64,000 nucleotides of DNA from a virus (lineage: Duplodnaviria > Caudoviricetes): the IMG/VR virus record IMGVR_UViG_3300028283_000231, one strand, 5' to 3'. The notes under the pieces were generated by a model. It did no database searches, was not told the DNA's origin, and saw only the letters and a program-made list of their open reading frames with translations. This document shows positions 54,414-63,692 of the stretch, one piece after another (position 1 is the first letter of the stretch; each line of letters starts with the position of its first letter). The position numbers and the translations under genes were made by a program.

Positions 54414-54819
54414 AATTTTAAAGATTAAAGACGACCTAAGAAATGGTTATCATATTTTATGCCGTGTCCACATCAATGGTAAAGAATTTAGAATGCTTGT
54501 AGATACTGGTTCTTCTATGACTTTGTTTGATATGAAAAAACAAAAGGAAATAAGTCAGTACGAAGCAGAAAATAACGACCAACATATAGTAGCTGTTGGT
54601 AGTGGTAATATTAAAAGTAAATATATCGTTATAGATGAAATGAGAATAGGTAATGTAATCATAAGAGATTATAAAACTATGTTACTTAATTTAGAATTCA
54701 TTAACGAACATTTTAGAACTAATGGTAATCCAACGATTGATGGTATAATTGGCGGAGATATATTAGCTGATCATAAGGCTGTTATAGATTACGAAAAGCG
54801 TGAAATGAAGTTATCATAG
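54400..54819 (+). CDS. Retropepsin-like aspartyl protease
   Basis: FRMLVDTGSS, DGIIGGDIL, VIDY. Confidence 0.85.
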   Translation: MIPIEILKIKDDLRNGYHILCRVHINGKEFRMLVDTGSSMTLFDMKKQKEISQYEAENNDQHIVAVGSGNIKSKYIVIDEMRIGNVIIRDYKTMLLNLEFINEHFRTNGNPTIDGIIGGDILADHKAVIDYEKREMKLS

Positions 54820-56209
54820 ATTCGTTATATAATTTCCCCTTTTTGTACCATCTTACCTTACCAGCTTCTTCTTTTTCTTCTTTTTTTCTCGATAAATATC
54901 TCACATCACAAGGGTGATCGTTCCACTCGGGGTCGTCTAAAAATCTATAATGGACTGTTTCTGCGTCTCTTTGTTGTCTGGTTATCATAACCTCGGCACC
55001 AACTTTATCTTTGTAATTTTTTCCTTTATAAATTAGGATTTCACCAACTTTAAAAAAATCTCCTTTATCCTCGTTGATTTTATTTTCTTCCAACCAATCT
55101 TCTTCACCGTAAGGATCGTGATGTAAATGTAATTTATTTAATTCGTCTCTTTTTATTTTTAATAGATTCGGTCTATCTTTTACGTAGTTTTCAATATCTT
55201 TAAAATTATCAATAAATTCATCAACAGTTACAGTTACGTCATTATCTGCTGTTCTACTCTGGTAAATTCTTTTTCCATCGTTATCTATTCCTATACCAAC
55301 ATTATAATGTGGGCATAAATAACCTCTATAAGTTCCATCATGATACCAAGACGGAAACCATCTCTCAAGCTCTTCTCCGCCACCTCCCCAAACAAACCAA
55401 TTCTTTTTAAGGAAATTGATTAATTCGTGATATTTTTCTTTAGAATCTACTTTTACGTAAAGACTATCTATACTTAAATAACTTTCATTTATCTTACTTT
55501 CGTTTTCCCAGTCTTCTTCGCCATATGGATCTACGTCTTTAGTTTTGAGATATAGTTGTTTAAGTCTTCTTATTTCTTTTTTAGTTTTTCTAATTTTATC
55601 TACTTTTTTCAAATTCCCTCTTTCGAACCAAATACCATCTACTTGCCAATATCTATCATTATTTGGGTTCAGATTCACTTTAAATTGTGTTCTATTATTC
55701 CTAAAATCAGTGATAACTCCTACTCTACTATTATATCTATCTACGTATCCATGTATAATTTCAACATCATCACCAACATATAAATCTTTTTTACTTTCAT
55801 TGACTACACTTTCATATTCCCATTCTTCTTCACCGTATGGGTCCCAAGGTGATACAGGATCTGGTTTATCTTCGTAATATATTACATTTGTAACACCACT
55901 ACCTATATGTAATATAACATCATAATCATTATCAGCAACCATGTGAACTTTCTGATTTTCATCTAAATATATCTTAACAATCTTCCAATGTCCTGCTCCA
56001 TGTATTTCATTCCCACCATCTTTATTCTTACCTAAAACTGGGAAACTACACACCTTACCTATCAATCTCTTTTTAAGGTATTCAGTAAATCTTCCCCACA
56101 ATTCTTTACCGTCTCTTATTCTATCTATTCTTTGAATATCGTGTAAAATATTAAGAGGAACAATCTCCTTAATAATATATCCTTCGGGTGTGAATTTACT
56201 TATACGCAT
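54782..56209 (-). CDS. Putative packaged polyprotein: four modules joined by DPYGEExW..xNE and RWYKKGKL-YNE linkers
   Basis: DPYGEEEWEYESVVNES; DPYGEEDWENESKINES; DPYGEEDWLEENKINED; KVRWYKKGKLYNES. Confidence 0.5.
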   Translation of the reverse strand: MRISKFTPEGYIIKEIVPLNILHDIQRIDRIRDGKELWGRFTEYLKKRLIGKVCSFPVLGKNKDGGNEIHGAGHWKIVKIYLDENQKVHMVADNDYDVILHIGSGVTNVIYYEDKPDPVSPWDPYGEEEWEYESVVNESKKDLYVGDDVEIIHGYVDRYNSRVGVITDFRNNRTQFKVNLNPNNDRYWQVDGIWFERGNLKKVDKIRKTKKEIRRLKQLYLKTKDVDPYGEEDWENESKINESYLSIDSLYVKVDSKEKYHELINFLKKNWFVWGGGGEELERWFPSWYHDGTYRGYLCPHYNVGIGIDNDGKRIYQSRTADNDVTVTVDEFIDNFKDIENYVKDRPNLLKIKRDELNKLHLHHDPYGEEDWLEENKINEDKGDFFKVGEILIYKGKNYKDKVGAEVMITRQQRDAETVHYRFLDDPEWNDHPCDVRYLSRKKEEKEEAGKVRWYKKGKLYNESMITSFHAFRNL

Positions 56210-56295
56210 AACTCGACTATATATTAAAAATTAAAAACAATTTACTCGATATTGATTATATATGATAACAAACCTTAAAAAATAATAGCCTATGA

Positions 56296-56970
56296 ATGAT
56301 CAAAACAATTGCCCACTTCGCGGACATACACGTTTATAAGTCTTTAGATAGACACGATGAATACAGAAAAGTCTTACAACAAGTTTACAAGAAATTAGAA
56401 GAACAAAAACCCGATAGAATAATAGTCGCTGGTGATACATATAGTGATTATATCGACCTCGAAGGCGAAGCTCTCATTCTTATAGGTGAAATACTTAATC
56501 GCTTCGCTAAAATTGCTCCCGTTATTATTACACGAGGCAACCACGAAATTAGAAAGAAAAATAGAAGTAGAATAGATACAGTTAAAACTGTTACAGACCT
56601 CCTCCAAAACCCAAAAGTTACATATTATAACCAATCTGGTTTCTACCCAGACGATAACGTCATGTGGGTGGTATGGGACCACGTTGATCATAGATATAAC
56701 AACATTAACCCTTGGAAAAATATAACACATTCAAGAGATAAGAAACTTACTTATATAGATTTATACCACGATCCAATAGATGGTTGTGTATATCATAACG
56801 GTTACAATCCAGGTAATAGAACCTTTCCTAGTCCGTCAGATTTTAAAGGAGAATTTGGTTTCTTCGGTGATATTCATTTAAGACAATATTTTAATTTTAA
56901 AGAGGTTGAATTAGAAATAGATGAAGAAGATCTTGATAAATATCTAAAAGATGGATGGAAAATAGTTTAA
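56296..56970 (+). CDS. sbcD: Mre11/SbcD-like metallophosphoesterase, N-terminal fragment of a split gene
   Basis: ADIH, AGD, RGNHE, YHDP, GDIH. Stops before the SSLIQQNFGE motif. Confidence 0.8.
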   Translation: MIKTIAHFADIHVYKSLDRHDEYRKVLQQVYKKLEEQKPDRIIVAGDTYSDYIDLEGEALILIGEILNRFAKIAPVIITRGNHEIRKKNRSRIDTVKTVTDLLQNPKVTYYNQSGFYPDDNVMWVVWDHVDHRYNNINPWKNITHSRDKKLTYIDLYHDPIDGCVYHNGYNPGNRTFPSPSDFKGEFGFFGDIHLRQYFNFKEVELEIDEEDLDKYLKDGWKIV

Positions 56971-56981
56971 TTTCCCCTGTG

Positions 56982-57034
56982 TTTTTGTTGTTTTAGACAT
57001 TTAGATTTTTATATATACAATAAAACAACAAAAA
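56982..57034 (+). promoter_or_regulatory. 14-bp inverted repeat masking the endonuclease leader, with a putative late promoter in its loop
   Basis: tttttgttgtttta (56982-56995) pairs with taaaacaacaaaaa (57021-57034). TTTATATATAC is at 57008-57018 and the ATG at 57039. Confidence 0.65.
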
Positions 57035-57038
57035 TTAT

Positions 57039-57926
57039 ATGAAATGTTTAATTTGTGGAAAAGAACATAACAATAAGAAGTACTGTTCAGAACAATGTCA
57101 ATATGAAGCTTATAGAGTTAAGAAAGTGGAAAGAGTTAATATAAAGTGTTTAAATTGTGGCGAAGAATTTGAAATATTGAAAACTAAACAAAAAAAATAT
57201 TGTAGTAGAAAATGTGTAGATGAACATAAAAAGATAACATATTTAGGTGAAAATAACCCTATGTTCAATTATGATGTATCAGATGACACTAGAAAAAAAC
57301 ATTCTGAAGCGTCAAAAATGATGTGGAGAAATCAAGATGTGTCAGATAGAATAAAAAAAAGAATGAAAGAACATAATGAAAATAGTGAATATCCAAATGG
57401 ATGGTCTAATGAATCAAGGGAAAGAAGAATTAAAACTACTATCGAAAAATTTGGAGTAGTTCACAACTTCATGAACGAAGGAGTTAGAGATCAAGCGAAT
57501 AAAACATGTATGGAAAGATATGGGAAAATGTCATACGAACTGATGTTGGATGGATTACATAAAACTAATATAACATCAATAGAAAAAATATTTGAAAATT
57601 TCTTAATAATTAATGATATAAAATATGAAAAACAATTTAGAATATATTTTAAAAATGAAAAAAGTGAATTGAAATTCAGATCATATGATTTTTATTTAAT
57701 AGACAAAAAAACAATTGTTGAAATAGATGGTGATTATTGGCACGGTAATCCAATGTTTTTTAAGAAATTAAACGAAACTCAACTGAAAAATAAAGCCAAT
57801 GATATATTTAAAGATGAATTAGTTATAATTAAAAATTTAAATATCATAAGGTTTTGGGAAGTTGATATACATAATAACAACTACGAGCAAAAGATATTAA
57901 GTTTATATGGCAAAAATAAAGATTAA
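57039..57926 (+). mobile_element. Free-standing putative homing endonuclease (zinc-finger repeats + DUF559-like nuclease) inserted in the mre11-rad50 gene
   Basis: CLICG..KKYCS.QC and CLNCG..KKYCSRKC; YDFYL...IVEIDGDYWHGNP...IIRFWE. Confidence 0.75.
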
Positions 57927-60900
57927 GAAAAAAATCCCCAGCGCTGGATTCGCATCGTCGCTTATTCAACAGAACTTTGGTGAAGATCCATTCGGACATG
58001 GTTATCTTCTATGGAATATAGAAGAAGGAACGGTTCAAGATATTAACATTGATAACGAACATAGATTCATTAAATTTGAGATCAGTCCGAATACAGATTA
58101 CGATAAATTACATTTAATTTCTAAATACGTTGGTAAATACAACAAATTTAGAGTTGAATGGAACGAACACGCGGCTTTCATTACAAACGAAAATGAAACG
58201 AAAATAAAAAAATATCTTAAAGAAAAATACGGCGCAGAAGATATTGAAATTAAACCAAATAGAATTTATACAGATATTAAAGACGGTAAAATGCTGTCTG
58301 AAATTATTGATATAAATGATAAAGACGTACAACAAGGTATTATAAAACAATTCCTTAAAGAAAATAAATTTAAAGATGATTTTGTCAATCAGGTAATAGA
58401 AATAGATAACGTTATAAATGATAGATTACAATTAAGTGATACTAGAAATATTATTTGGAACATTGATAAGTTTTGGTTTAGTAATTTCAAATCCTACGGT
58501 GACGATAATATAATTGAATGGGATAACATAAATGGTGTTATTCAAATTGGCGGTGAGAACCAACAAGGTAAAACTACCATCATTGATGCGATATGTTTTA
58601 TACTTTACGGTACAACTATATCTACACAGAAAACAGAAAAGAACGGTAATAATAGATATATCAACAAAAATAGAAATAAGAATGCTTGTGACGGTGGTGC
58701 CGTCATAGATGTTAACGGTGAAAAGTACATAATGTACAGAAAAGTAGAAAGAGAATTTAAGAAGGGAAGAGAGATTAAATCTGTACCTATGACTCTTGAT
58801 TACTATAAGGGAACTGAAATGTCTGACGAAAATAAATTAACAGGTGAAAGAAAAGCGTCTACACAAAAATTACTGGACGAGGTACTTGGTAATTTTGATG
58901 ATTTTGTAAGATTGGCATTAACAAATGCTGATAACTTAAACTCTCTTCTTTCAATGGATAGAAGTGTTTTCATTGATTCTATCATAAAGGACGCTGGTTA
59001 CGATATATTTGAAAAGAAATTATCTGAATTTAAAGAATATAAAAAGGAATTAAATCTTGAGAAAATAAATGTTAACCAGATTGAATTACAAAACGAAATC
59101 AAAAAAATATCAGATGATTTAAAAGATAAAGAAGATTTTTTATCTGATACTAATATTGATATAGAAGATATAGATAAACAAATAGTAGATAATGTTAATG
59201 AAAAGGAAGACTGTTTAAGAAGATTACACAAGATGGACGAAACAGTAATGAATATTAATGTGAACGACGTTAAAACACAAATAAGAGTATCTAAAACAGA
59301 AAAGGAAGAGATAAGAAAAGAAATTGACGAATTGGAAAAGGACATAACTCTTTTACCAGAAGAATTCGATTATGATAACTTTGAAAAATTAACAGGCCAA
59401 CACGAAAAATATGTTACAGAGAAGAATAAAAGAGATATCGAACTATTACAGTTGAAGAATGTTTTTAAACAGAACGAAGAGAAAATTCTCAACGTTGATA
59501 AGGATATTAACATTGAAAAAACAAAGTATGTTGATTATTTAAGGAATAATATTGCTGGTTTGAGAATTGAATTAAGGGAAACTATTAACGAGATAAATAA
59601 TAATTCCAACGTTAAAAGAAATGAGTTAGAAAATCAAAAGAATAAATATAGAAATGAATTAAATCTTCTTAAGCAAAATGGTATTGACGAAAAACAAAAA
59701 ATCGTTGATTATACAAACATGCTTAATGGTGATAATCAAATCTGTGTTACCTGTAATCAACCTATTGTTACAAAGGACGAAGAACATATGAACGGACTTA
59801 TAACAGATAGTAAAAAGAAAATAGAAGATATTACTAAAACTGGTAAACAGAAACTTGATTTCTTAAATGAATGCAATACAAAATTAGAAGCCTTATCTAC
59901 TCTTTCAGATAAATTAATTGATGAAAAAACTATCGAATTTACAGATAAAATAAAGGAGATTCAAAACAAAGTAGATAACTTCAACATCGCCTATATACAA
60001 GATCGAATTGAAGAAGTGATGAAAAATAAAGAGAAAGCAGAACTCGAAAACGTTTCTTACGATACAAAAATAGAAGAGAGAAAGAAATACGTTTCTAAAC
60101 TAGACACAGAAATTAAAAGACTATCTCTCACTATAACCAGTCTTAAAGTAGACAAGGCTCTCTTCGAAAAATGTAGAACTTTAACTCATAAGAGAGATCT
60201 ATTAACTTCACAATATAAAGACGCTCAAAGATCTTTCGATGATAACACTAAATTATTAAATGAATATCTTAAAAACGAAGCTCTTATAACTGAGAACGAA
60301 CGCATCAACACCTCACTAAAATCTATTAAAGAACAGATTGATACGCTCACTTCTAAGAGGAGCGAACTTTTAGATGATAAACTATCTTATTCTAATGAGA
60401 TCACTCTGTCTAAGAAGGTTATAGTAGATTTAAAGGATAAATTAGAGCGTTATATTGAGCAGGAAAAGAGAGAAGAACTTCATAACGTTTATTTAAAATT
60501 AATGCACAGAACAGGTCTTCCTACTTATCTTTTAACAAAGAATATTGATATATTGAACGAAGAGTTGAACTCCTTGTTAACAAACATTAATTTCACTTTA
60601 TTCTTTGACGAGGATCTGAATTTGAAGTTACAACACGATGGGTTAGATGATATTATAAATGTTATTGAAACATCTGGTATGGAAAGAACATTTAGTGCTA
60701 TTATTTTGAAGATGGTTTTAAGAATTATAAACTTTAAGAGTAAACCTAACTTTATGTTTTTAGACGAGGTTATCAATAGACTTGTGAATAAGTCAGTAGA
60801 TAAGTTTATGGAATTGCTTGAGGTATTGAAAAATAAAATTGATAAATTAATAGTCATCGAACACGATAATGAAATAGCTAGTGATATGATTATCAATGTA

Positions 60901-60942
60901 GTTAAGAGTGAAAATGGTATAAGTAGTTTTGAAATAATATAG
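57907..60942 (+). CDS. sbcC: Mre11/SbcD C-terminal fragment fused to Rad50/SbcC ATPase
   Basis: SSLIQQNFGE..HGYLLW; Walker A GENQQGKTT; long coiled coil with CVTC hook; TSGME signature; Walker B FMFLDE; IEHD. Confidence 0.85.
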   Translation: MAKIKIKKKIPSAGFASSLIQQNFGEDPFGHGYLLWNIEEGTVQDINIDNEHRFIKFEISPNTDYDKLHLISKYVGKYNKFRVEWNEHAAFITNENETKIKKYLKEKYGAEDIEIKPNRIYTDIKDGKMLSEIIDINDKDVQQGIIKQFLKENKFKDDFVNQVIEIDNVINDRLQLSDTRNIIWNIDKFWFSNFKSYGDDNIIEWDNINGVIQIGGENQQGKTTIIDAICFILYGTTISTQKTEKNGNNRYINKNRNKNACDGGAVIDVNGEKYIMYRKVEREFKKGREIKSVPMTLDYYKGTEMSDENKLTGERKASTQKLLDEVLGNFDDFVRLALTNADNLNSLLSMDRSVFIDSIIKDAGYDIFEKKLSEFKEYKKELNLEKINVNQIELQNEIKKISDDLKDKEDFLSDTNIDIEDIDKQIVDNVNEKEDCLRRLHKMDETVMNINVNDVKTQIRVSKTEKEEIRKEIDELEKDITLLPEEFDYDNFEKLTGQHEKYVTEKNKRDIELLQLKNVFKQNEEKILNVDKDINIEKTKYVDYLRNNIAGLRIELRETINEINNNSNVKRNELENQKNKYRNELNLLKQNGIDEKQKIVDYTNMLNGDNQICVTCNQPIVTKDEEHMNGLITDSKKKIEDITKTGKQKLDFLNECNTKLEALSTLSDKLIDEKTIEFTDKIKEIQNKVDNFNIAYIQDRIEEVMKNKEKAELENVSYDTKIEERKKYVSKLDTEIKRLSLTITSLKVDKALFEKCRTLTHKRDLLTSQYKDAQRSFDDNTKLLNEYLKNEALITENERINTSLKSIKEQIDTLTSKRSELLDDKLSYSNEITLSKKVIVDLKDKLERYIEQEKREELHNVYLKLMHRTGLPTYLLTKNIDILNEELNSLLTNINFTLFFDEDLNLKLQHDGLDDIINVIETSGMERTFSAIILKMVLRIINFKSKPNFMFLDEVINRLVNKSVDKFMELLEVLKNKIDKLIVIEHDNEIASDMIINVVKSENGISSFEII

Positions 60943-60948
60943 AATATT

Positions 60949-61149
60949 ATGTTAAACATAGATAAATTAACTAGGGATGAACTACAAAAAGAATTTTTTG
61001 AATTTGAAGGGGATCACCCAGGAAATTGGGAGAAATGGATCAAATGTTTATTAAGTAAGGAGTATTTCAAGGATAGTAGTTTTTATAATTATCTTCTTAA
61101 TAAGGAAAGAACAGAATTAATTGATAAAACATTAAATGATAATAACTGA
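60949..61149 (+). CDS. Small protein with the shared C-terminal motif
   Basis: Ends NKERTELIDKTLNDNN. Confidence 0.6.
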   Translation: MLNIDKLTRDELQKEFFEFEGDHPGNWEKWIKCLLSKEYFKDSSFYNYLLNKERTELIDKTLNDNN

Positions 61150-61447
61150 TACATACGAAGATAAAGCTGGATATAGCGTGACAATTGGAGATATACAACA
61201 ATGTTGTCCTAAATGTGGGAAACACGAAATGTTTCATCTCATTTGTAAAGGTAAGGATGATAGAGGATTTAGAAATGGTATGTCCTTTATAAAATGTCAA
61301 GAATGTAACTGGAGAGGACTTAGTAAGTATTTAGTAGATCCTTATGAATTTAAAGTTAAAAAGAGAACAGAATTAATCGATAGGATGATTTATGAAGGGA
61401 AAATGGAAAAAAATATGGAACGACGACTTACCAGGATTTCACGATAG
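61136..61447 (+). CDS. Zinc-ribbon protein with the shared motif
   Basis: CPKC...CQEC; EFKVKKRTELIDRMIYE. Confidence 0.6.
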   Translation: MIITDTYEDKAGYSVTIGDIQQCCPKCGKHEMFHLICKGKDDRGFRNGMSFIKCQECNWRGLSKYLVDPYEFKVKKRTELIDRMIYEGKMEKNMERRLTRISR

Positions 61448-61661
61448 ATTTCACTGTCCAGAATGTTTTGGTTTTGAATTATTTATAGGAAAAGATCACG
61501 TTCAATATTATCATTATCAACAACCAACAGTAGTAAATAATACTCCATCTAGAATGAAATGTAAATGTGGATGGACAGGATTATCGACAGAGTTATTAGA
61601 CAAAGATGAAATGAAGAACACTAAAAGGGTAAAATTAATTGATGAAATGTGCAAAGAATAG
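61392..61661 (+). CDS. Zinc-ribbon protein with the shared C-terminal motif
   Basis: CPEC...CKCGW; EMKNTKRVKLIDEMCKE. Confidence 0.6.
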   Translation: MKGKWKKIWNDDLPGFHDRFHCPECFGFELFIGKDHVQYYHYQQPTVVNNTPSRMKCKCGWTGLSTELLDKDEMKNTKRVKLIDEMCKE

Positions 61662-61891
61662 AAACTATATACAAAGGGGAAGAATTAATAATTGAAGTAT
61701 CTGATGGTGCAAGATCTATTGGTAGCGGTTCAAATTTTGGAATAAACGGAGTTCAAATAAATTTTCATAAAGGCATCTTTGACGAAGATACAAATTCTTT
61801 TGTTGAAGATATTTTATGCGAAAGAATCAATATCAATAGAAACAAATTAATTGACGATATACTATATGGGAAGAAAGAAACTAAAATTTAA
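61649..61891 (+). CDS. Small protein with the shared C-terminal motif
   Basis: GTG start; ININRNKLIDDILYG. Confidence 0.55.
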   Translation: MQRIETIYKGEELIIEVSDGARSIGSGSNFGINGVQINFHKGIFDEDTNSFVEDILCERININRNKLIDDILYGKKETKI

Positions 61892-62192
61892 AACTAAACA
61901 TAGATGTCCCAAAAGCACTTGGGGTGGTTATATAGAAGGAAGATTGTTCGATTACGATTATACTAAATGGCCTGGTTGGATGCCTGATTATTATAAACTA
62001 TATCTCGATATGGAAGAAATAGAAGAACTAGGCAAAAAAGAAGATATAGACGAATTCTCATTGGAAATGGCTAAATTAATCAGAAACAAAGAAGAGATAG
62101 ATTTCCCAGTAGCCGTAAACTTTACAGAAGACGAATTCAAAAACTTTAGAAGAATGGTCCTAATGGATAATATGCTCAATTGTCAGAAATGA
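61866..62192 (+). CDS. Small protein with the shared C-terminal motif
   Basis: The ATG at 61866 is preferred; EFKNFRRMVLMDNMLNCQK. Confidence 0.55.
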   Translation: MGRKKLKFKTKHRCPKSTWGGYIEGRLFDYDYTKWPGWMPDYYKLYLDMEEIEELGKKEDIDEFSLEMAKLIRNKEEIDFPVAVNFTEDEFKNFRRMVLMDNMLNCQK

Positions 62193-62238
62193 TAAAAATG
62201 ACAATATTTATATTAATATATACAAATAAAAAAGAGTT

Positions 62239-62370
62239 ATGAATTTAATAATAGATAAAAACAGAGTATTTTACCATAGTTCTATTAGTAGAGCTAGATG
62301 TGGTAAATGGGTACATGTAAGTAATAGTGATCCAAAACTAAAGAATCAAAAGGAATCAGGAATCTTATAG
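62239..62370 (+). CDS. Small hypothetical protein (43 aa)
   Basis: Read by eye: MNLIIDKNRVFYHSSISRARCGKW...; preceded by TTAATATATAC and a gagttATG leader like other genes with this motif. Confidence 0.4.
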   Translation: MNLIIDKNRVFYHSSISRARCGKWVHVSNSDPKLKNQKESGIL

Positions 62371-62380
62371 TAGTGGTATT

Positions 62381-62614
62381 CTACCAGATTACGCTGAAAT
62401 GGAAAGAGAAGACATTATGCCAAGTTTGTTGACTGGTGTTATCGTACCAATCTGTTACTGTTATATTTATATGTCTATTAACTATTTCCATAATTACCTT
62501 ATCAAGAGTATCTTTATCTTGTGTCGGGTATTTATATATCGACCCTTTCTCTTTTTTCCCAAAAGTATATCTGGGACTTTTTTCAAGTTTAGTAGAATAT
62601 TTATCTGGTTTCAT
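62381..62614 (-). CDS. Hypothetical protein, last gene of the minus-strand run
   Basis: ATG embedded in the LNE codons of the upstream gene. Confidence 0.5.
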   Translation of the reverse strand: MKPDKYSTKLEKSPRYTFGKKEKGSIYKYPTQDKDTLDKVIMEIVNRHINITVTDWYDNTSQQTWHNVFSFHFSVIW

Positions 62615-62873
62615 TTAAAGATCTATCAATTATTTTTATTCTCTTATAGTTCTTTGCTTCGTATTCATCTAACGTCTTATTCCAATCACCCATCCATCCA
62701 CAAGATTTACATTTTGGAAGAATGGCTCTATTATCTTTTGTGACTTCATATCCTAATATATCGTAACAAACTGGACAATAATCATAATGAATTAGTCTAG
62801 CCTGTTGTTCAGCTCTGTCTAATTGATATTTAAGGGTTTCTATAAATTCTTGTTCCTTTTCTATGCTATTCAT
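62601..62873 (-). CDS. Zinc-ribbon protein with the shared C-terminal motif
   Basis: CPVC...CKSCGW; EAKNYKRIKIIDRSLNETR. Confidence 0.6.
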   Translation of the reverse strand: MNSIEKEQEFIETLKYQLDRAEQQARLIHYDYCPVCYDILGYEVTKDNRAILPKCKSCGWMGDWNKTLDEYEAKNYKRIKIIDRSLNETR

Positions 62874-63102
62874 TTAACATTTCGTCAATTAATTTTGTTC
62901 TTTTTAAATTTTTCCATTCTTCTTGGACATAAAATTTATCATGAAAATCTTCTAATTTCAATAATGTATTAAATGGGGCTTTTATCGGCGCTTCAACATG
63001 CACTAATCCTTTTAGTATTACGAAACTATACCATTTATTTTTTTCATAACAATTGGAGTTCTTATTAAAACTTTCTTTAGCTTTTTCTATTTTATTTTTC
63101 AT
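62866..63102 (-). CDS. Small protein with the shared C-terminal motif
   Basis: EWKNLKRTKLIDEMLNE. Confidence 0.6.
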   Translation of the reverse strand: MKNKIEKAKESFNKNSNCYEKNKWYSFVILKGLVHVEAPIKAPFNTLLKLEDFHDKFYVQEEWKNLKRTKLIDEMLNE

Positions 63103-63373
63103 TTAACATTTCGTCCATTAGTTTTGTTCTTTGCCAATTTTTATATTCTTCTTTTGTAAATTCCACGATATAAGTATCATCGCCCATCATTTCTTTTCCA
63201 CCAAGTTTATATTTATCGTTATCTTCTTTACTCACACAACCAACATATTCTTTAAATTCAGACATACTATGATATATTATCCACCCGCCCTCTTTTCTGG
63301 TATGTATCCATTTTCTTCCATCAATATCAATAATATCATACTTGCCCTTCCACTTATTATCTATCACATTCAT
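63092..63373 (-). CDS. Small protein with the shared C-terminal motif
   Basis: EYKNWQRTKLMDEMLNEK. Confidence 0.6.
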   Translation of the reverse strand: MNVIDNKWKGKYDIIDIDGRKWIHTRKEGGWIIYHSMSEFKEYVGCVSKEDNDKYKLGGKEMMGDDTYIVEFTKEEYKNWQRTKLMDEMLNEK

Positions 63374-63692
63374 TTAACATTTTATCTATTAATTCTATTC
63401 TTTCGTTACACTTAATTTCATTCTTATCAAAATAAAAACGCTTTTTATCATAACCAAAAGCACATTCTACTCCATAAATAGTAATTTCATCGCTCCCATT
63501 GGCTTTATTTATAAGGTAAATGCCATCATAGTATTCACCCTCTTTAAAATTAGAACCTGGTCCTACATATTTCCCACTTACTGTATATCTATCAGGTGTT
63601 GAAAAATCCTTTATACAAAGTACTTTTATTTTTTCATAATAACAAGTCGGATATACTTCAGCGTCGGGATAATCGTCAATTACTCTCTTCAT
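63357..63692 (-). CDS. Small protein with the shared C-terminal motif
   Basis: EIKCNERIELIDKMLNECDR. Confidence 0.6.
   Translation of the reverse strand: MKRVIDDYPDAEVYPTCYYEKIKVLCIKDFSTPDRYTVSGKYVGPGSNFKEGEYYDGIYLINKANGSDEITIYGVECAFGYDKKRFYFDKNEIKCNERIELIDKMLNECDR

Follow-up and report, generated by a model that had tools for sequence, protein, structure and literature searches.

A free-standing endonuclease gene inside the Mre11 domain of a phage Mre11-Rad50 fusion, with probable non-covalent reassembly of the two halves

Organisation of the split gene and its uninterrupted counterpart

The window analysed was the whole 64,000-nucleotide (nt) stretch taken from IMGVR_UViG_3300028283_000231 (Duplodnaviria; Caudoviricetes; G+C ~28% across the whole window), in which a gene for a fused Mre11-Rad50 (SbcD-SbcC) protein is split by the gene of a free-standing endonuclease. 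Three open reading frames (ORFs) on the plus strand were found at the locus: fragment 1 (56296-56970, 224 amino acids (aa)), consisting of 199 native N-terminal Mre11-type residues and a 25-residue tail; the endonuclease ORF (57039-57926, 295 aa), the frame of which differs from that of both fragments; and fragment 2 (57907-60942, 1011 aa), which starts with MAKIKIKKK and is read in the same frame as fragment 1. The stop codon of fragment 1 and the ATG of the endonuclease are separated by 68 nt, the endonuclease and fragment 2 overlap by 20 nt, and the endonuclease TAA (57924-57926) abuts the resumption of host sequence. The same stretch was present in independent lake-water DNA runs, and since contigs from two other such runs bridged both junctions with zero differences, the split arrangement is not an assembly artefact. 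An earlier reading of the locus made from the letters alone (the sequence-only reading) had described a nuclease domain split by a free-standing endonuclease, with the phosphoesterase motifs up to GDIH and an acidic tail in fragment 1, an own ATG and a whole Rad50 in fragment 2 and a 68-nt spacer, and each of these features was recovered as described.

The native part of fragment 1 (residues 1-199; 56296-56892) was assigned as an Mre11/SbcD-type phosphoesterase core reaching through motif V, based on a Pfam Metallophos match (E 5e-12), a match to positions 6-229 of PHROG 35725 (fused metallo-phosphoesterase, ~1376 positions) and the motifs, which were read from the translations for both fragments: DIH (10-12), GDTYS (46-50), GNHE (81-84), YHDP (157-160) and GDIH (191-194) for motifs I-V. 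Residues D10, G46, D47, G81, N82, H83, H158 and H194 were invariant in 72 homologs. Fragment 2 matched later positions of PHROG 35725. Behind its head peptide follow the rest of Mre11, with the last core strands, capping domain and linker helices (57958-58461; placed by alignment and homolog model), and the Rad50/SbcC ATPase (58462-60942; SbcC-like PHROG 77, E 1e-30; weak Pfam SMC_N and AAA_29 matches). Invariant nuclease-core residues in fragment 2 are S18, E26, H31 and G32, and its ATPase motifs comprise Walker A (58552-58575, residues 216-223), a CxxC zinc hook (59743-59754, residues 613-616), the signature SGME (60673-60684, residues 923-926), Walker B (60751-60768, residues 949-954) and the H-loop (60856-60864).

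For the Mre11 fold a family member was modelled in place of the window's own fragments, and this homolog model (first 420 residues; predicted local distance difference test (pLDDT) 89) matched Mre11/SbcD nuclease and capping structures at E 1e-13 to 1e-9. Because motifs I-V lie in fragment 1, invariant core residues open fragment 2 and the homolog model corresponds to the Mre11/SbcD nuclease with its capping domain, the break is, as judged from this model, inside the Mre11 catalytic domain, between two strands after motif V, and not at the Mre11/Rad50 boundary. The statement of the sequence-only reading that fragment 2 supplies the rest of the nuclease therefore holds for the last core strands and the capping domain, to which Rad50 is joined, but not for the metal-binding motifs, all five of which are already in fragment 1. 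Mre11/Rad50 fusions such as Mimivirus R555 (Yoshida, Claverie, Ogata 2011, PMC3175470) are built from the same single-chain Mre11 nuclease and Rad50 ATPase as the uninterrupted relatives (1050-1260 aa) of the window's gene; in the window the fusion is broken again, inside Mre11 rather than at the boundary of its two parts.

Only one kind of record in the phage collection matched the window, a 735-kilobase (kb) uncultured phage (LR756501.1/LR756503.1; 88% nt identity over 55000-62000). In LR756501.1 (locus L001:4300-7908) one continuous, unbroken ORF of 1202 aa aligned to 55002-56887 and 57958-60940 of the window at ~88% nt identity on both sides, and since this single ORF aligns on either side of the insert, one gene has been split in two. 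In place of 1070 nt in the window stand 32 nt in LR756501.1, a net difference of 1038 nt; by codon alignment the insert spans 56893-57924 (1032 nt), giving a cassette of about 1.03-1.07 kb. The relative's junction reads GDIH-LRQFF-KKKSMAYPSS-LIQQNFGE, and that of the window GDIH-LRQYF, followed by the 25-residue tail and a stop, with a restart at M-A-K-I-K-I-K-K-K-I-P-S-A-G-F-A-S-S-LIQQNFGE. The native part of fragment 1 is 96% identical to the relative at the aa level. To the right of the insert, a diverged tract reaches ~57957 (67% identity in the first 60 nt, ~88% elsewhere), and a check for co-conversion tracts found unusual divergence only in the first 33-60 nt on this side, the left flank being ordinary.

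It was also considered that the insertion killed the gene, the fragments being decaying pseudogenes while another enzyme carries out repair, and a second copy could lie in the rest of the phage's genome beyond the window. No second Mre11 copy was found within the 64-kb window, however, and the complete 735-kb relative holds a single Mre11-like gene and no endonuclease homolog. With fragments intact in the window and in ~25 divergent lineages, and all catalytic and ATPase motifs kept, loss of the gene's function is very improbable.

The endonuclease, its leader and the absence of splicing elements

The endonuclease gene (57039-57926) encodes N-terminal CxxC pairs, a helical DNA-binding region and, from ~residue 195, a C-terminal Vsr-like (EDxHD) catalytic domain; the assignment draws on weak Pfam matches (DUF7487, NUMOD3, Vsr), PHROG 559 and the predicted fold. 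A search of PDB sequences with the protein returned one chance ribosomal-protein match only. Its model (pLDDT 94) was compared with solved structures using Foldseek, and the top match was 3r3p (I-Bth0305I), followed by 1cw0/1vsr (Vsr) and 3hrl (a DUF559 protein), at a probability of 1.0 and E 1e-3 to 2e-2; against 3r3p the template modelling (TM) score was 0.68-0.76 by target, with 19% sequence identity to the solved domain. Because the best solved match of the model is the I-Bth0305I catalytic domain and the next is Vsr, the protein is placed, on its predicted structure, in the Vsr-like 'EDxHD' family of homing endonucleases (Dassa, London, Stoddard, Schueler-Furman, Pietrokovski 2009, Nucleic Acids Res 37:2560, PMC2677866; Taylor et al. 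2011, PMC3239194). Homologs numbered 87 in a 90%-clustered protein collection, many of them with DUF559, Vsr, NUMOD3 or DUF7487 matches. In an alignment of 55 homologs including the window's protein, D217, E228, G231, D232, Y233, W234, H235, D255 and K258 were invariant and D230 nearly so, and D217, E228 and H235 are spaced exactly as D51, F62 and H69 of Vsr in Dassa et al. 2009. Common to the protein and to I-Bth0305I with its family (PMC3239194) are the Vsr-like catalytic domain with its conserved acidic and histidine residues, a DNA-binding region at the N-terminus and the phage setting; unlike the free-standing endonuclease of the window, I-Bth0305I has its gene in a group I intron of recA. 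Its activity would be the cleavage of cassette-free alleles, leading to homing.

As Vsr-like endonucleases occur in group I introns of recA (PMC2677866, PMC3239194), and as the two fragments share a frame and the net insert length is divisible by three, we weighed whether the endonuclease ORF lies in a group I or group II intron whose removal from the RNA restores one frame. With a permissive threshold (E up to 10), an Rfam scan of 56000-58600 matched neither a group I nor a group II intron family. Once the endonuclease ORF is subtracted, 146 nt of the insert are left, 78 of them coding for the selected tail, and as host sequence resumes right at the endonuclease TAA, no space remains for a 3' ribozyme core. 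Fragment 2 moreover has an own conserved ATG and head, and no joint skipping the insert was seen in any run, where contigs were searched and no RNA contig covers a junction. We thus regard an intron as hardly credible at this locus.

The tail and head could alternatively be the parts of a very short split intein, joining the halves by trans-splicing as in canonical fractured genes. Among the fractured genes described by Dassa et al. 2009 (PMC2677866), the majority carry split inteins on either side of an endonuclease of this family, with halves that pair electrostatically, and one of the loci related to the window (L010) appears to hold a split intein elsewhere in the same gene. In the window, no Hint/intein family of Pfam was matched by the three ORF products, no conserved Cys, Ser or Thr stands at position 1 of the tail, and no His-Asn precedes the resumed host sequence. 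At 25 and 9-17 residues, tail and head are too small, to our knowledge far below the length of any known split intein. Uninterrupted homologs retain the fused tail and head as a folded part of the mature protein, and Dassa et al. 2009 scored their own SbcD-like locus as intein-less. Trans-splicing of this kind is accordingly judged highly implausible, and the view of the sequence-only reading that neither an intron nor an intein is present was borne out by the Rfam and Pfam searches, the lengths and the missing terminal residues.

Translational bypass or frameshifting over 1 kb was dropped as a candidate, fragment 2 having its own conserved start. Within 56659-60863, contigs of two lake-water metatranscriptome libraries matched internal parts of both fragments and of the endonuclease (the latter at 57284-57549) with no differences, DNA carry-over being possible.

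Upstream of the endonuclease gene a leader hairpin was predicted (56981-57035, plus strand), in which 56981-56995 pairs with 57021-57035 in a 15-base-pair stem, the 3' arm ending 3 nt before the endonuclease ATG. Its fold energy is -14.1 kcal/mol (z -3.1), and equivalents were found in 4 of 5 other loci (z -3.8 to -8.2; hence 5 of 6 loci), L008, with its short spacer, being without the 5' arm. RNAalifold returned no consensus structure for the six leaders; the alignment was poor, and single-sequence folds were used instead. Leader hairpins have been reported for fractured-gene endonucleases (Dassa et al. 2009, PMC2677866) and for mobE (Crona et al. 2011, PMC3045599), and by analogy the hairpin probably restrains translation of the endonuclease. 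The loop holds TTTTATATATAC (57007-57018), which was tried as a general promoter and rejected: its enrichment was not significant and one exact copy is intragenic, a promoter role thus being suggested by analogy only.

Recurrence of the cassette and published counterparts

The layout of fragment 1, endonuclease and fragment 2 was also found in loci L002, L005, L006, L008 and L010, with endonuclease identities of 46-66%, and each endonuclease homolog on a fetched contig directly follows a Metallophos gene. Homologs of the host gene were collected by a full HMMER search with fragment 1, and the best 150 representatives at 50% identity were sorted into groups. About 110 of the 150 are uninterrupted, 1050-1260 aa long, with a short linker after motif V, and these, together with the continuous ORF of LR756501.1, are the uninterrupted homologs with which the sequence-only reading had proposed to align the fragments. 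Split forms ending in the tail motif account for 19 representatives, and six are uninterrupted with a long tail-like internal insertion.

Split forms are dispersed over a tree of the N-terminal domain, on which the split state requires 24 changes for 25 rows, of which at least 12 are forced by well-supported branches, and its distribution is no better than that of shuffled labels; the window and its uninterrupted relative pair at 100% support. In deep pairs, endonuclease identity (58-61%) exceeds host identity (38-52%), which may reflect only different rates.

Three of the related sequences showed peculiarities of their own. The gene has a second fracture in L010 (4872-8879; metagenome contig NODE_309, 191.8 kb), where the Rad50 part breaks off after 245 aa, directly at the lysine of Walker A (...GK, followed by C-V-E-E...). 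Next comes an ORF of 422 aa to which Pfam gave no match, and the ORF after it contains intein splicing-domain C-terminal blocks (E 7e-6, below the Pfam cut-off), so that this second break looks like a canonical split-intein fracture beside the intein-less one. Two genes upstream of the fractured Mre11, a second NUMOD3-bearing ORF of 300 aa (L010:2161-3063) is probably another free-standing endonuclease. In L012 (3177-5109), where another gene has a Pfam match of the T4 gp13 type, an endonuclease homolog (41% identity) follows an unsplit 261-aa Mre11, and because the 59-aa ORF behind it duplicates the last ~55 residues of that Mre11, the arrangement suggests that the cassette moved together with flanking host sequence. 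In the representative P0089 (267 aa) the ORF homologous to fragment 1 continues ~45 residues beyond the tail motif; the place of the stop behind the tail thus varies within the family.

A locus of this type was described by Dassa et al. 2009 (PMC2677866) as an intein-less 'SbcD-like' fractured gene from the Lake Gatun metagenome of the Global Ocean Sampling (GOS). As in the window, an SbcD/Mre11-like gene is divided into two ORFs by a Vsr-like free-standing endonuclease ORF with no split intein, the endonuclease and the ORF that follows it overlap, and the DNA came from fresh water. The published locus carries C-terminal and N-terminal inserts of 25 and 9 residues that uninterrupted homologs lack, and as the tail (25) and the head core (9) of the window are equal in length, the window is assigned to this locus type, the likeness being judged by the published description. 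The Dassa locus is one short assembled locus mentioned in passing, whereas the window presents the whole host gene, an Mre11-Rad50 fusion, in a huge phage with a near-identical uninterrupted allele. The sequence-only reading had taken the locus to be a second such case after the split nrdA of phage Aeh1; this did not stand, the same SbcD-like split being in the report of 2009 and further endonuclease-split phage genes being cited there and in PMC3045599. The locus type has been known since 2009 and is not new in kind, and as a discovery the window is modest for this reason. It adds the near-identical uninterrupted allele, a break in the whole Mre11-Rad50 fusion of a huge phage and the breadth of the family, as well as selection on the tail and head, a predicted fold for both and probable scar forms, which are described below.

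Tail and head peptides and the association of the halves

The cassette-borne tail of fragment 1 (56893-56970, plus strand; 25 codons and a stop) is acidic and predicted to form a strand, a helix and a second strand. Its pattern of alternating acidic and hydrophobic residues, an acidic helix and G-W-x-I is kept down to ~30% host identity; it is conserved in the 19 of the 150 best representative clusters and in six fetched loci, and absent from the uninterrupted relative. The cassette-borne head of fragment 2 (57907-57957, plus strand) comprises a basic strand, M-A-K-I-K-I-K-K-K, followed by I-P-S-A-G-F-A-S, overlaps the last codons of the endonuclease in another frame and could not be aligned to the relative. 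Nine split fragment 2 homologs start with M-x-K-I-K-I-(K/R/T)-K, and the head is likewise conserved in five loci. Codon comparisons were expressed as the proportions of synonymous (pS) and non-synonymous (pN) differences. For the tail the means were pS 0.58 and pN 0.23 (window versus L002: pS 0.45, pN 0.07), and for the head pS was ~0.9 and pN 0.04-0.27. Because pS exceeds pN in both, the codon comparisons indicate translation of tail and head and purifying selection on both peptides, as opposed to filler or RNA structure.

In the uninterrupted forms with a long insertion, tail-like and head-like segments are joined by a short turn, and these forms are sisters of split forms in several clades (P0229 with P0209, support 99). 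In an AlphaFold2 model of P0229:1-420 (pLDDT 89), the insertion folds into a strand (211-218), a helix (219-225) and two further strands (230-236 and 239-246), and the break of the split forms maps to the turn at 236-239. The fused tail and head are thus predicted to form one small beta-alpha-beta-beta unit in uninterrupted relatives. Re-fusion of the gene after loss of the endonuclease, leaving the insertion as a scar, is the simplest reading of these forms; the opposite order is possible.

Association of the halves, for which modelling of the complex had been suggested with the sequence-only reading, was modelled from fragment 1 and residues 1-180 of fragment 2, each supplied as an alignment. 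The best of three controls scored 0.00 and the complex 0.92, a mark attained by solved complexes in 58 of 80 cases and by mismatched pairs in 2 of 110; these counts are rough because own alignments were used. Runs agreed in at least 97% of contacts, with a partner pLDDT of at least 81. The surest contacts, i.e. those with the lowest error, are those that complete the native sheet (residues 3-8 of fragment 1 against 33-38 of fragment 2, and 187-190 against 12-15), and the modelled interface also holds residues 199-210, L213, Y216 and 219-224 of the tail and residues 1 and 3-20 of the head. The model supports binding of the halves. The proposal that the charge-complementary acidic tail (EVELEIDEE) and basic head (KIKIKKK) help reassembly is in keeping with these results, both peptides lying in the modelled interface and being under selection.

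Taken together, we consider it likely that an endonuclease cassette has split this Mre11-Rad50 gene and that the halves reassemble non-covalently with the help of a unit formed by tail and head. The mobile cassette lies just after phosphoesterase motif V of a single-chain SbcD-SbcC fusion gene in a huge lake-water phage, and consists of 25 tail codons and a stop, the leader hairpin, the Vsr-like endonuclease gene, and a new ATG with the basic head that overlaps the endonuclease stop. Neither RNA nor protein would be spliced; two polypeptides would be made and reassemble non-covalently, the main contact being formed by strands of fragment 2 that dock on strands of fragment 1 and complete the Mre11 beta-sandwich, while the acidic tail (strand-helix-strand) and the basic head (strand) would combine into the beta-alpha-beta-beta unit at the break. 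The presumed targets of the endonuclease are cassette-free alleles, e.g. that of LR756501.1, into which recombinational repair would copy the cassette, tail and head included, with the leader hairpin probably limiting translation of the endonuclease. Association of the halves in vivo and a need for the clasp of tail and head are inferred.

The biochemically studied counterpart is nrdA/mobE of phage Aeh1 (Friedrich et al. 2007; Crona et al. 2011, PMC3045599), where the gene of an essential enzyme is likewise interrupted by a free-standing endonuclease gene, at a point between neighbouring beta-strands close to the active site, the tails brought by the cassette are oppositely charged, the endonuclease overlaps the downstream fragment and is preceded by a hairpin (inhibitory in Aeh1), and function is restored by assembly, not by splicing, as we infer for the window's family. 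In Aeh1 the host enzyme is a ribonucleotide reductase, mobE is of the HNH type and not Vsr-like, and the charges are reversed (basic C-tail, acidic N-tail). For Aeh1, a single known instance, there is biochemical proof, whereas the window's family offers many instances known from sequences and models. Crona et al. 2011 found the cassette-derived, oppositely charged tails to be essential for the split Aeh1 NrdA and predicted the solution to be general.

The halves might instead associate only via the native Mre11 beta-sheet, with tail and head as passengers, be it as a co-converted flank or with a role in dimerisation, Rad50 contact or translational coupling. Such an account is favoured by the native character of the lowest-error contacts (3-8/33-38; 187-190/12-15), by the formation of the Aeh1 NrdA heterodimer without tails (PMC3045599) and by the head codons, which also encode the endonuclease C-terminus and give fragment 2 its start. 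Purifying selection on tail and head in the frames of the fragments across deep divergence, their retention as a confidently folded internal unit in uninterrupted 'scar' forms and the presence of both in the modelled interface speak against it, and we hold it to be unlikely.

Several further points weigh against reassembly with a tail-head unit after cassette invasion. The pass of the complex model may be explained by likeness to solved Mre11 structures, because the halves belong to a fold with many solved structures. The family is known from sequences and models, and the biochemical proof is that of Aeh1, in which the NrdA tails are dispensable for heterodimer formation and needed only for higher-order assembly (Crona et al. 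2011, PMC3045599); because the halves associate without them, Aeh1 does not settle the role of a clasp in Mre11. The search for a second copy covered the window and the relative, and an intact copy may exist elsewhere in the phage's own genome. RNA-library contigs cover parts of all three genes, and none bridges a junction. In the window, TTTTATATATAC was not significantly enriched, with 9 matches against 4.3 expected, a number reached in 6 of 100 shuffles. Comparison of endonuclease and host trees at seven loci gave no supported conflict, distant horizontal transfer thus not being evident; in the absence of such conflict, the scattered distribution, as read from the trees, could reflect repeated loss more than repeated invasion. 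Whether invasion or loss prevails, the cassette is gained or lost as one piece with precise ends.

Within the preferred account of a cassette-split gene with reassembling halves, a further proposal is made tentatively, at somewhat less than an even chance: that tail and head are a portable mini-domain (beta-alpha-beta plus beta) which travels with the endonuclease as a remedy for the break, has been selected in dozens of phage lineages and is left as a scar domain in genes re-fused after loss of the endonuclease. If this is true, the mini-domain would be a natural, splicing-free module for the re-joining of proteins, both testable and reusable. The locus shows how a selfish endonuclease can reside inside an essential enzyme domain with neither intron nor intein, its cassette bringing the ends for reassembly, and the family supplies many natural replicates for the mechanism that Crona et al. 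2011 (PMC3045599) proposed as general from one phage, along with a small natural protein clasp.

In the neighbourhood of the split gene, a 475-aa ORF lies directly upstream on the minus strand (54782-56209) and contains repeated DPYGEE-x-W motifs between modules, and downstream (60949-63692) a series of small ORFs on both strands ends in near-identical C-termini of the type ...ELIDKMLNE.

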